Source: a virus (Duplodnaviria > Heunggongvirae > Uroviricota > Caudoviricetes). Taken from it: a stretch of DNA of 18,485 nt. Under the pieces are notes generated by a model. It saw only the letters and a list, made by a program, of their open reading frames with translations, did not search any database and was not told the DNA's origin. Below are positions 1 through 17,565 of this stretch, one piece after another. The position numbers and the translations under genes are program-made. The stretch's first letter is position 1; every line of letters begins with the position of its first letter. The stretch lies in IMG/VR virus record IMGVR_UViG_2540341028_000007. One strand, given 5' to 3'.

Positions 1-259
1 CAGTGCATCTGGCCACTCTGATACCTTCCCGTAACAACTGACGCCAGACTTTACGCACACCGTATACCTGATGATTCCCATCGTATACGCGCAGTATCTC
101 TTTCTTCAGCCAGTCATCGCGCTGCGCACGGGCACTGCGTTTATCAGGATGATGTCGCTGTTGCTGACAGTGGTAATACGTTGACGGGGCAATATGTAGT
201 TCACTGCATACCGGTCCGACCCCGTACAGCTTACGCAGCTTATCCAGCAGTGGCATCAC
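1..259 (-). CDS. IS3-family transposase OrfB (DDE catalytic part), 5' portion only; 3' part lies beyond the window edge
   Basis: Mirror image of the first 259 nt of orfB at 16633-17523; reverse complement of bases 1-25 matches 16867-16891 (ggtatcagagtggccagatgcactg). Not in the ORF track because it is cut by the window edge. Confidence 0.85.
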
Positions 260-582
260 TTTTTCCAGAGGCGGTCGAACTCCGCCTTCGCAAAATAAGC
301 GGAAGCCTGGCGAAGGATATCGTTACTGCGGCGCAGTTCACGATTTTCACGTTCCAGCTCTTTCAGACGCTGACGTTCAGCGGTGGTGAGCCCGCCATCA
401 CCGCCTCCGGTATCCCGCTCATGCTGGCGTACCCAGACACGCAGAGTCTCCGGTGTACAGCCAATCTTTGGGGCAATGGAACAAATTGCCGCCCACTGTG
501 AGTCATATTCGCCCTGACTTTCCAGAACCATACGAATCGCCCTCTGACGGACTTCGGGGGAAAAACGAGTATTTTTAGTCAT
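256..582 (-). CDS. IS3-family transposase OrfA (helix-turn-helix DNA-binding component), IS629-type
   Basis: 108-aa [33 protein letters not shown]..., recognised from memory as IS629/IS1203 OrfA. Overlaps the orfB start in the -1 frame, as is typical for IS3-family OrfAB frameshifting. Confidence 0.9.
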
Positions 583-636
583 CCTGTTTACCTCTTTCTC
601 AGGGAGTTTAGTCTCCAGGATTCCCGGGGCGGTTCA

Positions 637-1242
637 GAGCCCGCACCAACGCTGAAAATCAAAGACCCGCACTATGATGAAAAGCACCTTGCTATTGAGC
701 AGGCGCTGACTCAGGGGCAGACGAAACATCCTGTGTTTTATCAGGATGAAGTCGACATCGACCTGAATACGAAAATCGGCGTGGACTGGATGCCCAAAGG
801 GCAACAGAAACGCATCGCTACGCCGGGACAGAACCTGAAGCATTATCTGGCTGGCGCACTGCACTCAGGTACGGGACGGGTTCACTAGGCCAGTGGCAGC
901 AGCAAAAGTTCTGATTTATTTATCAGTCTGTTAGAGGCATTACGGCGTAGATATCGGCGGGCGAAAACCATCACACTGGTGGCGGATAACTACATCATCC
1001 ATAAAGGCCGTAAAGTGGAGCGATGGCTGGAAGAAAACCCGAAGTTCCGGTTGCTGTTCCTGCCGACGTATTCACCGTGGCTGAATCCGATAGAGCAACT
1101 TTGGTTATCGTTACACAAGACCATAACGCGAAATCATCAGTGCCGGTATATGTGGCAGATACTGAAACAGGTAACGCAGTTTATGAATGCTGCTTTACCG
1201 TTTCCGGGTAATCAACACGGTATGGCCAAAGTGGAGCGGTAA
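637..1242 (+). pseudogene. IS630-family transposase, C-terminal ~200 codons only; 5' end removed by the IS629 insertion at 636/637; one in-frame TAG at 886-888
   Basis: A single reading frame from 637 to 1242 translates EPAPTLKIKDPHYDEKHLAIEQALTQGQTKHPVFYQDEVDIDLNTKIGVDWMPKGQQKRIATPGQNLKHYLAGALHSGTGRVH*ASGSSKSSDLFISLLEALRRRYRRAKTITLVADNYIIHKGRKVERWLEENPKFRLLFLPTYSPWLNPIEQLWLSLHKTITRNHQCRYMWQILKQVTQFMNAALPFPGNQHGMAKVER. This resembles the IS630/Tc1-mariner-like transposase C-terminus as I remember it. ORF-track entry 979-1242 is the distal part of the same frame. Confidence 0.7.
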
Positions 1243-1455
1243 TATGCGAAGCTATTTAGATTCAGTTTGAATCTCAGCCCTGACATTCATTCTTTACCGA
1301 CGTTCCATTAGCCCAAATCTGAGTATATAACCTCAATTCAACTGACTAAATTTAACACAATATCAATGACAAATGTCTTTACCATTGGTACATACAATTG
1401 CAAAATCACCATCTCTAAGCAATAAGACTACGCATATTAAAGTGAGTTATATTAA

Positions 1456-2604
1456 ATGTTTGAAATTGATAGCCTATTATTAATAACATCCGTGATAATC
1501 TTGTCATTATTGGCTGTAAAATTATTTGATGAAATTTCTCCTATACAACTTGTCGATCATGGAAGAAATAATCAGATAGATGGAATGAGAGGATTCTTAG
1601 CCATCTTCGTACTTATTCATCATGCCGCTATTTGGCATGGCTACTTATTAACCGGGGTATGGAAAACTCCGTCATCAAACTTATTAACAAATTTAGGCCA
1701 AGTTGGTGTCTCATTCTTTTTCATGATCACCGGATATCTATTTTTTTCGAAGATTCGCTCAAGTGACCAGGATTGGGTAAGACTATATATATCGAGATTT
1801 CTGCGATTAACTCCTATGTTTATTGTAAGTTTATGTTTAGTTCTTCTTGTTATAGGTTTTAAATCAAGATGGAGCGTACATGTCTCCCCTGCCTCTCTTA
1901 CTGTGTCACTCATGAGATGGGCACCATTCACCGCATTAGGGATGCCAAATATTAACGGTGTTAAGGACTCATTCACTATCAATGCAGCTGTAACATGGAC
2001 CCTCGTTTACGAATGGTTTTTTTATTTTTCATTACCGGTTATAGCTGCACTCTTCAAAAGAAGAGTCAGCATCCACATGATTATAATAAGTGTTTTAGTT
2101 CTAGTGATTTTCTTATGTTACCCATCAAAAAAAATACATGTTATTTCATTTTTATTTGGACTGTTAGCCTCTTATTCAAATAATTATGTACATAGAGTTG
2201 CTAAAGCTAAAATAACGCCTATTATGATAATTGCATTACTAAGTTACGAAATGATATATTTTCCTACAACCTACGCTCCACTCCCTCTCATAATTTGCGG
2301 TGTTTGCTTTATACTTATCGCATCAGGCTGTGATTTTTATGGTATATTGAGATTAAATTTAACAAGAAAACTTGGTGAAACAACATATAGTATTTATCTT
2401 TTACATGGAGTATTCCTTTATTGTGTAATGACATGGGTCATCCCTAGTAATTATTCTAATTATTTTTTTATTATGTTAATAAGCATTACTGCTTTTTGCG
2501 TCACACTTTTATCATGCATAACATTTAAATTAATTGAACTACCTTTCATTAATATAACAAAACAAACCGCTATGAAAATCAGGGGCATAATAAAAAACAC
2601 TTAG
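1456..2604 (+). CDS. Integral-membrane acyltransferase, acyltransferase-3 family (Oac/OafA-like); candidate O-antigen or other surface-polysaccharide O-acetyltransferase
   Basis: 382-aa very hydrophobic ORF with the N-terminal motif IDGMRGFLAIFVLIHH and the block GVSFFFMITGYLF, both typical of acyltransferase family 3. ATG at 1456 is preceded by agtgag. Strongly AT-rich compared with flanking phage genes. Transcribed convergently to the tail operon. Confidence 0.8.
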   Translation: MFEIDSLLLITSVIILSLLAVKLFDEISPIQLVDHGRNNQIDGMRGFLAIFVLIHHAAIWHGYLLTGVWKTPSSNLLTNLGQVGVSFFFMITGYLFFSKIRSSDQDWVRLYISRFLRLTPMFIVSLCLVLLVIGFKSRWSVHVSPASLTVSLMRWAPFTALGMPNINGVKDSFTINAAVTWTLVYEWFFYFSLPVIAALFKRRVSIHMIIISVLVLVIFLCYPSKKIHVISFLFGLLASYSNNYVHRVAKAKITPIMIIALLSYEMIYFPTTYAPLPLIICGVCFILIASGCDFYGILRLNLTRKLGETTYSIYLLHGVFLYCVMTWVIPSNYSNYFFIMLISITAFCVTLLSCITFKLIELPFINITKQTAMKIRGIIKNT

Positions 2605-15620: not shown

Positions 15621-16255
15621 TTACGCCACTGCAATCTTCAGCAGTTTGATGGCCTGCGAATCGACCAGCATGCCGCCGGTGCGTTTGGTGGTATAAAAAC
15701 CGACAAACGGTTTATTGGTGTACGGGTCACGCAGAATGCGGGTGCCGATACGGTCAACGATGGTGTAACCCCGTTTGAAGTTACCAAATGCAATGGCTTT
15801 CGCATCAGCGGCGATATCCGGCATCTGTTCGTTTTCAGCGATACCGTAACCCGCCAGAGAGGACGGCTGCCCCAGCTCCAGCCCCGGACGCCACAGATAG
15901 TTACCCTCGCTGTCTTTCAGCAGACGGATGGCAAACAGGCTATTGTTGTTCATCATGAACTTCGCGCCGGTGCGGTGTGCCTTACGCAGCGTGTAAATCA
16001 GTTTGATAATGGCGTCTGCGGTCACCGCCGTCGCGTCGCCGGATACAATATGCTGAAGTTTGCCGAACGCCCGGACCTTATCGGTTTCATCCGTGGATTC
16101 ATTCGCCAGGAACCCTTTCGGCTTCTTGGTACCATCGCCGGTGGTAAAGGCAATTTCTTCCTGTTCGGCAAATTCGGTTGCCAGCTCGCTGTTGATCCAT
16201 GCTTCCACGTTGAAAAAGGCATCATCCAGCATTTTCTGGGTGGCCTGCGGGTTAC
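15621..16255 (-). pseudogene. Major capsid protein, HK97 family, C-terminal ~211 codons only; 5' part replaced by IS629
   Basis: ORF-track entry 15621-16232 stays open in frame upstream (…NPQATQK-MLDDAFFNVEAW…) up to the IS629 end at 16255/16256. The C-terminal sequence (…RDPYTNKPFVGFYTTKRTGGMLVDSQAIKLLKIAVA) resembles HK97-fold major capsid proteins. Confidence 0.75.
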
Positions 16256-16309
16256 TGAACCGCCCCGGGAATCCTGGAGACTAAACTCCCTGAGAAAGAG
16301 GTAAACAGG

Positions 16310-16636
16310 ATGACTAAAAATACTCGTTTTTCCCCCGAAGTCCGTCAGAGGGCGATTCGTATGGTTCTGGAAAGTCAGGGCGAATATGACTCACAGTGGG
16401 CGGCAATTTGTTCCATTGCCCCAAAGATTGGCTGTACACCGGAGACTCTGCGTGTCTGGGTACGCCAGCATGAGCGGGATACCGGAGGCGGTGATGGCGG
16501 GCTCACCACCGCTGAACGTCAGCGTCTGAAAGAGCTGGAACGTGAAAATCGTGAACTGCGCCGCAGTAACGATATCCTTCGCCAGGCTTCCGCTTATTTT
16601 GCGAAGGCGGAGTTCGACCGCCTCTGGAAAAAGTGA
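16310..16636 (+). CDS. IS3-family transposase OrfA (IS629-type)
   Basis: 108-aa ORF identical to the one at 256-582; the A-run gaaaaag at 16627-16633 lies at the orfA/orfB overlap where IS3-family -1 frameshifting generates OrfAB. Confidence 0.9.
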
Positions 16637-17523
16637 TGCCACTGCTGGATAAGCTGCGTAAGCTGTACGGGGTCGGACCGGTATGCAGTGAACTACATAT
16701 TGCCCCGTCAACGTATTACCACTGTCAGCAACAGCGACATCATCCTGATAAACGCAGTGCCCGTGCGCAGCGCGATGACTGGCTGAAGAAAGAGATACTG
16801 CGCGTATACGATGGGAATCATCAGGTATACGGTGTGCGTAAAGTCTGGCGTCAGTTGTTACGGGAAGGTATCAGAGTGGCCAGATGCACTGTGGCACGTC
16901 TCATGGCGGTTATGGGACTTGCCGGTGTTCTCCGGGGTAAAAAGGTCCGTACGACCATCAGCCGGAAAGCCGTTGCCGCAGGCGACCGCGTAAACCGTCA
17001 GTTCGTGGCAGAACGACCTGACCAGCTGTGGGTGGCTGATTTTACTTACGTCAGCACATGGCAGGGCTTCGTCTATGTGGCGTTCATTATTGATGTGTTT
17101 GCCGGATACATCGTGGGGTGGCGGGTCTCATCGTCCATGGAAACGACATTCGTGCTGGATGCTCTGGAGCAGGCGTTATGGGCCCGTCGACCGTCCGGCA
17201 CGGTCCATCACAGTGATAAAGGTTCTCAGTATGTATCGCTGGCCTACACACAGCGGCTTAAGGAAGCCGGATTACTGGCATCAACAGGAAGTACAGGCGA
17301 CTCGTATGACAACGCGATGGCGGAGAGCATCAATGGTCTTTACAAAGCGGAGGTAATACACCGTAAGAGCTGGAAAAACCGTGCAGAAGTGGAACTGGCC
17401 ACACTCACGTGGGTGGACTGGTATAATAATCGACGATTGCTGGAAAGGCTGGGCCACATCCCTCCGGCAGAAGCAGAAAAAGCTTATTATGCTTCCATCG
17501 GAAACGATGATCTGGCAGCCTGA
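16633..17523 (+). CDS. IS3-family transposase OrfB (DDE catalytic domain, IS629-type)
   Basis: 296-aa ORF in the -1 frame relative to orfA; sequence [10 protein letters not shown]...[34 protein letters not shown]...[11 protein letters not shown]...[22 protein letters not shown] recognised from memory as IS629 OrfB with the DDE motif region. Confidence 0.9.
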
Positions 17524-17565
17524 GTTCACAGATAAAACACTCTCCAGGAAACCCGGGGCGGTTCA

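Follow-up and report, generated by a model that had tools for sequence, protein, structure and literature searches.

The window analysed here (18,485 bp) is the entire draft contig AERO01000013.1 (assembly GCA_000193935.2) of Shigella flexneri serotype 6 strain CDC 796-83. It carries the O-antigen acetyltransferase gene oacC on a prophage remnant, the oacC island, which lies between two copies of the insertion sequence (IS) IS629 in opposite orientation. We find that this inverted arrangement is likely to reflect ordinary IS reshuffling at the known oacC island, rather than a conserved or functional invertible switch, as relatives of the strain carry the two IS629 copies as direct repeats. Note that the locus, oacC and the IS elements are already known and published. 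The available passages of PMC4206707 present contig NZ_AERO01000013 (Fig. 4) as the oacC prophage remnant of S. flexneri serotype 6 strain CDC 796-83.

A repeat search of the window returned a single inverted repeat of at least 30 nt, 1-637 against 16255-16891 (637 nt, 100% complementary, 15,617 nt apart). Reading the IS629 ends directly placed the left copy at 1-636 (minus strand, partial) and the right copy at 16256-17565 (plus strand, 1310 bp). The last of the 637 matching bases is thus a chance match of the flanks, and an initial annotation of the window, which had described two inverted, identical IS629 copies, gave their coordinates exactly. With IRL and IRR denoting the left and right terminal repeats of IS629, the two copies are as follows:

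1-636, minus strand: partial IS629 (IS positions 1-636), with IRL at 636, orfA at 256-582 and the ALIL pseudoknot at 185-301.
16256-17565, plus strand: complete IS629 of 1310 bp, with orfA at 16310-16636, orfB at 16633-17523 and ALIL at 16591-16707.

The right copy begins TGAACCGCCCCGGGAATCC... at 16256 and finishes ...GGAAACCCGGGGCGGTTCA at 17565. Its IRL and IRR agree at 23 of 25 positions (TGAACCGCCCCGGG...), and the TG...CA ends and the length of ~1.3 kb are those of the IS3 family. The orfB of the right copy matches the IS3 transposase profile NF033516 (310 bits), with Pfam HTH_Tnp_1 and rve present, and the ALIL frameshift pseudoknot RF01497 was detected in both copies at 116 bits each. 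The overlapping orfA and orfB, the DDE transposase and the predicted -1 frameshift signal mark the element, on sequence grounds, as IS629 (IS3 family). The name itself follows the usage in the available passages of PMC4206707. The window takes in the whole contig, so that the left copy amounts to a contig-end stub of 636 bp, whose outer half and outer flank are absent from the data. The 100% identity of the arms may in part be a consensus over collapsed repeats. Two long inverted repeats are thus present on one draft contig, but with a contig-end stub as the left arm and a direct arrangement in the relatives that can be read.

Relatives were obtained from exact-protein look-ups and comprised finished 4.6-4.7-Mb chromosomes with the decayed island and the second serotype-6 draft, CCH060. 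The chromosomes were counted as serotype 6 by the shared island, the capsid|IS629 junction and their near-identical sequence. Every locus was oriented like the window before IS629 was located (locus labels: L036, CP162080; L038, CP055124; L011, CP160647; L013/L040, CP026811.1; L041, CP160649.1; L017, QXHZ01000092.1). The genomes returned by a look-up with the 142-aa GP46 call all had both IS630 and the capsid gene uninterrupted. The head-tail connector look-up was uninformative (47,715 blocks; the ten places listed were all complete prophages in other contexts).

The IS629 copy on the IS630 side was found in plus orientation in CP162080, CP162048, CP055124, CP160647, CP026811 and CCH060. The copy on the capsid side was likewise plus in CP162080, CP099865, CP055124, CP160647, CP026811, CP160649 and CCH060. 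Four finished genomes (CP162080, CP055124, CP160647, CP026811) and CCH060 allowed both junctions to be read, and the copies are direct repeats in 5/5. The 15.6-kb segment was not found in the opposite orientation in these four finished genomes, in three more with one junction read, or in the draft contigs. The initial annotation had regarded this segment as potentially invertible and had suggested comparison with close relatives as a check. The comparison confines the inverted pair to the draft contig of the window, and the segment is not recognisable as an invertible unit in the genomes compared. With direct repeats in the lineage, the predicted product is deletion or excision of the oacC island, not inversion.

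E. coli carries this prophage in complete form, beside paoD/yagP and with an IS630 that is not interrupted by IS629. At paoD/yagP in E. coli O103:H2 PV16-126 (L002, 4369-9144) we observed two inverted copies of an IS3-family element, ~95% identical to IS629, that bracket a gene for a TrlF-family AAA-like ATPase beside the tail-fibre end of the prophage. A 34.9-kb Logan contig (ERR5951538, L043) has the same split sheath gene and 180-aa tail terminator as the window, but its capsid gene is intact (401 aa), and it may stand for the state preceding the entry of IS629 into that gene.

Two other kinds of mobile or switching element were considered and rejected. For a site-specific tail-fibre switch of the Gin/Cin/Pin type, we found no resolvase or invertase among the called genes, a single tail fibre gene with its assembly gene, no alternative fibre ends and no second inverted repeat of at least 30 nt. 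For a composite transposon, we found no common target duplication around the IS-cargo-IS unit, and the outer flanks are unrelated and vary between genomes.

The window differs from its relatives at the left junction, where IS629 meets the following feature:

637-1242, plus strand: 3' fragment of an IS630-family transposase pseudogene, severed by IS629 at 636/637.

The 87-aa open reading frame (ORF) at 979-1242 is the C-terminus of an IS630-family transposase (NF033545, 7.7e-24), and 637-1242 is collinear with a complete, IS629-free IS630-family transposase pseudogene in E. coli L001 and in L022-L025. The available passages of PMC4206707 also label the transposase fragment upstream of oacC as IS630. 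In the relatives the junction reads ...AAACCCGGGGCGGTTCA|CAGAGCCC, with IRR toward the island. The window reads ...ATTCCCGGGGCGGTTCA|GAGCCC, with IRL toward the island and 2 nt (CA) fewer. An uninterrupted IS630 reads ...GGCGCA|GAGCCC. Exact-pattern scans of species-representative genomes, JGI metagenomes and IMG/VR gave no hit for the IRL|GAGCCC junction, and the version of the relatives had a single hit, in IMG/VR. In 5,426 complete E. coli genomes, a collection that excludes Shigella, the three junctions scanned were all absent. A look-up with the 76-aa ORF across the left junction found no record.

We lean towards reading the inverted left stub as a strain-specific IS629 insertion in opposite orientation, 2 nt from the old junction, and slightly favour this over an artefact. 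In support of a real event, the 2-nt shift looks less like a flip than like an independent insertion that duplicated GAG.

It is nevertheless quite possible, if somewhat short of probable, that the inverted stub arose in assembly or sequencing, that the true state is direct repeats, and that the link from capsid gene through IS629 to chbC is perhaps a mis-join as well. The left junction is unique, the contig spans a 1.3-kb multi-copy repeat, and the stub lies at the contig end, where coverage is lowest. Moreover, a flipped IS is exactly what template switching at the 14 identical nt of the IS termini would produce. Between the tape-measure and DNA-circularization genes, the window also differs from all relatives by one additional C in a C-run (9301-9304; CCCC versus CCC). 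This base, which is probably a homopolymer read error of the draft contig, is missing even from the closest relative, L017 (contig QXHZ01000092.1, GCA_003572085.1), which has both of the window's private base substitutions. However, a consensus requires reads, and reads of the true junction would exceed any chimera. The 2-nt shift, resembling a separate insertion, also has comparable real counterparts in finished relatives. The initial annotation was right to warn of mis-assembly at this place: the draft contig runs across a 1.3-kb repeat, and no finished relative examined agrees with its left junction.

Alternatively, as first proposed, CDC 796-83 may have a real inverted pair between which the 15.6-kb segment flips, with both isomers present or with an arbitrary assembled orientation. 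We consider this possible but doubtful. In the contig, the 636-nt arms show 100% identity. Among rearrangements in Shigella, the main type is inversion mediated by IS copies in inverted orientation (PMC8072062), and IS629 is demonstrably active and recombining in the lineage. Yet the left arm is merely a contig-end stub, every relative with readable junctions has direct repeats, and IRL|GAGCCC was absent from all other collections scanned, with no orientation variant seen. Inversion would also have no obvious effect, since both junctions fall within IS ends: it would move only dead phage genes and oacC between these ends and create no new promoter or coding fusion.

It is very improbable that the left IS629 was flipped where it stands, with its own terminal inverted repeats as the sites of recombination or template switching. 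IS self-inversion is documented for Wolbachia insertion sequences (Ling & Cordaux 2010, PMC3004938), and our case is alike in having the opposite orientation at essentially the same site in very close relatives. It differs in the junction: an in-place flip would spare the flanks, yet the window is without 2 nt (CA). In addition, the uninterrupted identity of the IS termini is only 14 nt, and the outer flank of the left copy lies beyond the contig data.

Several points weigh against our reading of the arrangement as ordinary reshuffling with no conserved switch. The inverted junction is part of a deposited contig, and reads are normally required before an assembler makes such a join. If the junction is real, the segment is formally invertible in CDC 796-83, as the initial annotation said. 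The IRL|GAGCCC junction may also be common to QXHZ01000092.1, whose IS630-side end lay outside the junction comparison (1,002 nt beyond the flank limit; 53-nt IS end). Finally, the mechanisms invoked, recombination and local insertion, are suggested by comparison of sequences.

The right copy of IS629 lies between the following features:

15621-16232, minus strand: C-terminal 203 codons of an HK97-type major capsid gene, truncated by IS629 at 16255/16256.
17566-18190, plus strand: 3' part of chbC (PTS chitobiose IIC), severed by IS629, with PF02378 PTS_EIIC on a 227-aa call at 17507-18190.
18241-18485, plus strand: 5' part of chbA, read from the sequence; the contig stops mid-gene.

The capsid ORF (15621-16232) matches TIGR01554 at 2.8e-72, covering profile positions 196-385 only, and the intact capsid gene in L024 runs ...GGGTTAC|CGTAGATTT. 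The capsid|IRL junction at 16255/16256 is common to L013-L015, L017, L036, L037, L039-L042 and L044. At its two ends, the right copy of the window reads TAC|IS|GTT. This lack of a target-site duplication indicates that the copy is recombinant (or a chimeric join), not a pristine insertion. It has T at IS position 1307 instead of the lineage marker C, which is kept on the capsid-adjacent copy in four finished genomes and draft CCH060. It is also without the 5-nt GTTAC direct repeat and three further capsid nt that come after the IS in relatives. In CP026811.1 (L013/L040), the capsid-adjacent IS629 has the GTTAC direct repeat followed by CGT, after which the flank enters orfA of another IS. The 5-nt repeat exceeds the 3-bp duplication at the fresh IS629 copy described below.

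In the window, the sequence abutting IS629 is that of chbC (...|GTTCTTCGGTATTC). The IS629|chbC junction was not found in complete E. coli genomes, species-representative genomes or JGI metagenomes, and a look-up with the 227-aa chbC fragment gave only the window contig. A search for ChbC homologues returned only assorted truncated forms, none of which led to chbC in the finished serotype-6 genomes. The right end of the window's right copy presumably derives from a different IS629 that had inserted in chbC, either through a real crossover or through a join made in assembly. The gene at 18241-18485 is named chbA after the chb operon. This gene is normally single-copy; another repeat, probably an IS, may sit at the contig stop inside it in strain CDC 796-83.

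The outer flanks of IS629 vary widely within the lineage. Among the finished genomes, four kinds of outer flank adjoin the left copy: the eaeH/ykgR region at either of two positions, a phage region, and a region of metG and IS sequence. Three kinds adjoin the right copy. One is the truncated orfA of a different IS, toward the genes for IMS polymerase and acetyltransferase, another is the hemB/tau side, and the third, that of the window, is chbC. The sequence adjacent to IS629 is shortened by 12 nt in CP162080 (L036), 4 nt in CP055124 (L038) and ~179 nt in CP160647 (L011). CP162080 and CP055124, with altered junctions of the right copy, have also lost 1307C. The shortened junctions and the marker loss suggest repeated insertion beside an existing copy followed by recombination, or IS-adjacent deletion. 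Relative to oacC, the strand of the ecp operon and ykgM/ykgO in serotype 6 is the opposite of that in E. coli (L007/L010/L011 versus L008). This strand difference points to an ancient inversion of the stretch from eaeH to IS630, one of whose breakpoints would be the left IS629.

From these comparisons, the IS629 copies have clearly exchanged flanks. The initial annotation had taken the unrelated flanks of the window as a sign of recombination between its two copies. The exchange as such stands, given the capsid-to-chbC join without target duplication, the loss of 1307C and the variable outer flanks. The evidence points, however, to distant IS629 copies as partners, rather than to the two copies of the window.

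CP160649.1 has a third IS629 inside the tape-measure gene (~9771 in the window), inverted with respect to its flanking copies and with a clean 3-bp duplication, CCC. This fresh copy indicates that IS629 is active in the lineage and, being inverted relative to its neighbours, that genuine inverted IS629 pairs do arise in the island.

IS-driven rearrangement in Shigella is textbook knowledge. Recombination between inverted IS copies gives inversions, and recombination between direct copies gives deletions (PMC8072062). At the oacC island, a dead prophage tail module with oacC and the IS630 fragment is cut by IS629 on both sides. The IS629 copies act as passive, portable 1.3-kb homology. RecA-dependent recombination between these copies, and with distant chromosomal IS629, would change the outer flanks repeatedly, and fresh IS629 insertions beside existing ends would alter them as well. 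The normal state of the lineage, seen in the finished genomes, is two direct copies, making the island deletable or excisable, not invertible.

The island can be compared with several known systems. The oacC prophage remnant is the same sequence: in the available passages of PMC4206707, oacC, the upstream IS630, the SfII-like tail and head genes and IS629 all match. These passages are silent on the relative orientation of the IS629 copies and on the chbC junction. The IS-recombination rearrangements of Shigella (PMC8072062) are alike in multi-copy IS homology and strain-variable outer flanks. They differ in that no inversion of the 15.6-kb segment is documented here and the relatives carry direct copies. 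Composite-transposon-like islands, such as the "transposon-like structure" of oacB in the available passages of PMC4206707, resemble the island of the finished genomes in being bounded by two direct IS629 copies. Here, in contrast, there is no shared target duplication and no sign of movement as a unit, and the arrangement in the window is inverted.

The remaining features of the island are the following:

1456-2604, plus strand: oacC (SGF_00264), O-antigen 3/4-O-acetyltransferase, with PF01757 Acyl_transf_3, in a low-GC region (GC ~33%); named as in the available passages of PMC4206707.
2884-15572, minus strand: decayed tail, baseplate and head-tail module like that of phages SfI, SfII and SfV, assigned by Pfam on identical genes and by DNA identity, with genes for tail fibre assembly, tail fibre, baseplate, DNA circularization, tape measure, tube, split sheath, terminator and connector.

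The "moron" of the initial annotation is thus the published oacC gene on an SfII-like prophage remnant. According to the available passages of PMC4206707, the function of the acyltransferase oacC (SGF_00264) was tested, with 3/4-O-acetylation of rhamnose III, and the map there has IS630 directly upstream of oacC, an SfII-like prophage structural region downstream, and IS629. The region 2600-16255 has a DNA identity of ~97% to phages SfI, SfII and SfV across 82-90% of the query. The tail sheath gene is split (11942-12955 and 13010-13438; ORFs of 337 and 142 aa versus 498 aa in E. coli), and the tail terminator (13619-14161) is 180 aa long versus 186. From the split sheath and the shortened terminator, the prophage is already decayed independently of the IS cuts. 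The tail tube protein has an amino-acid variant private to the window, G83S.

It seems rather unlikely that the left IS629 of CDC 796-83 is truly opposite to that of all sequenced relatives, by head-to-head re-insertion 2 nt from the old end or by an in-place flip. If true, the re-orientation would turn a deletable oacC island (direct copies) into one that can only invert (inverted copies), and it would be a natural case of IS re-orientation stabilising a serotype-modifying gene.

In conclusion, the biological importance of the inverted arrangement is small, and its lesson is one of data quality. When a draft contig stops within a repeat, any segment of it that appears invertible should be compared against finished genomes. 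For the oacC island, the finished genomes show direct repeats, and the prediction becomes deletion of a serotype-determining gene in place of inversion.

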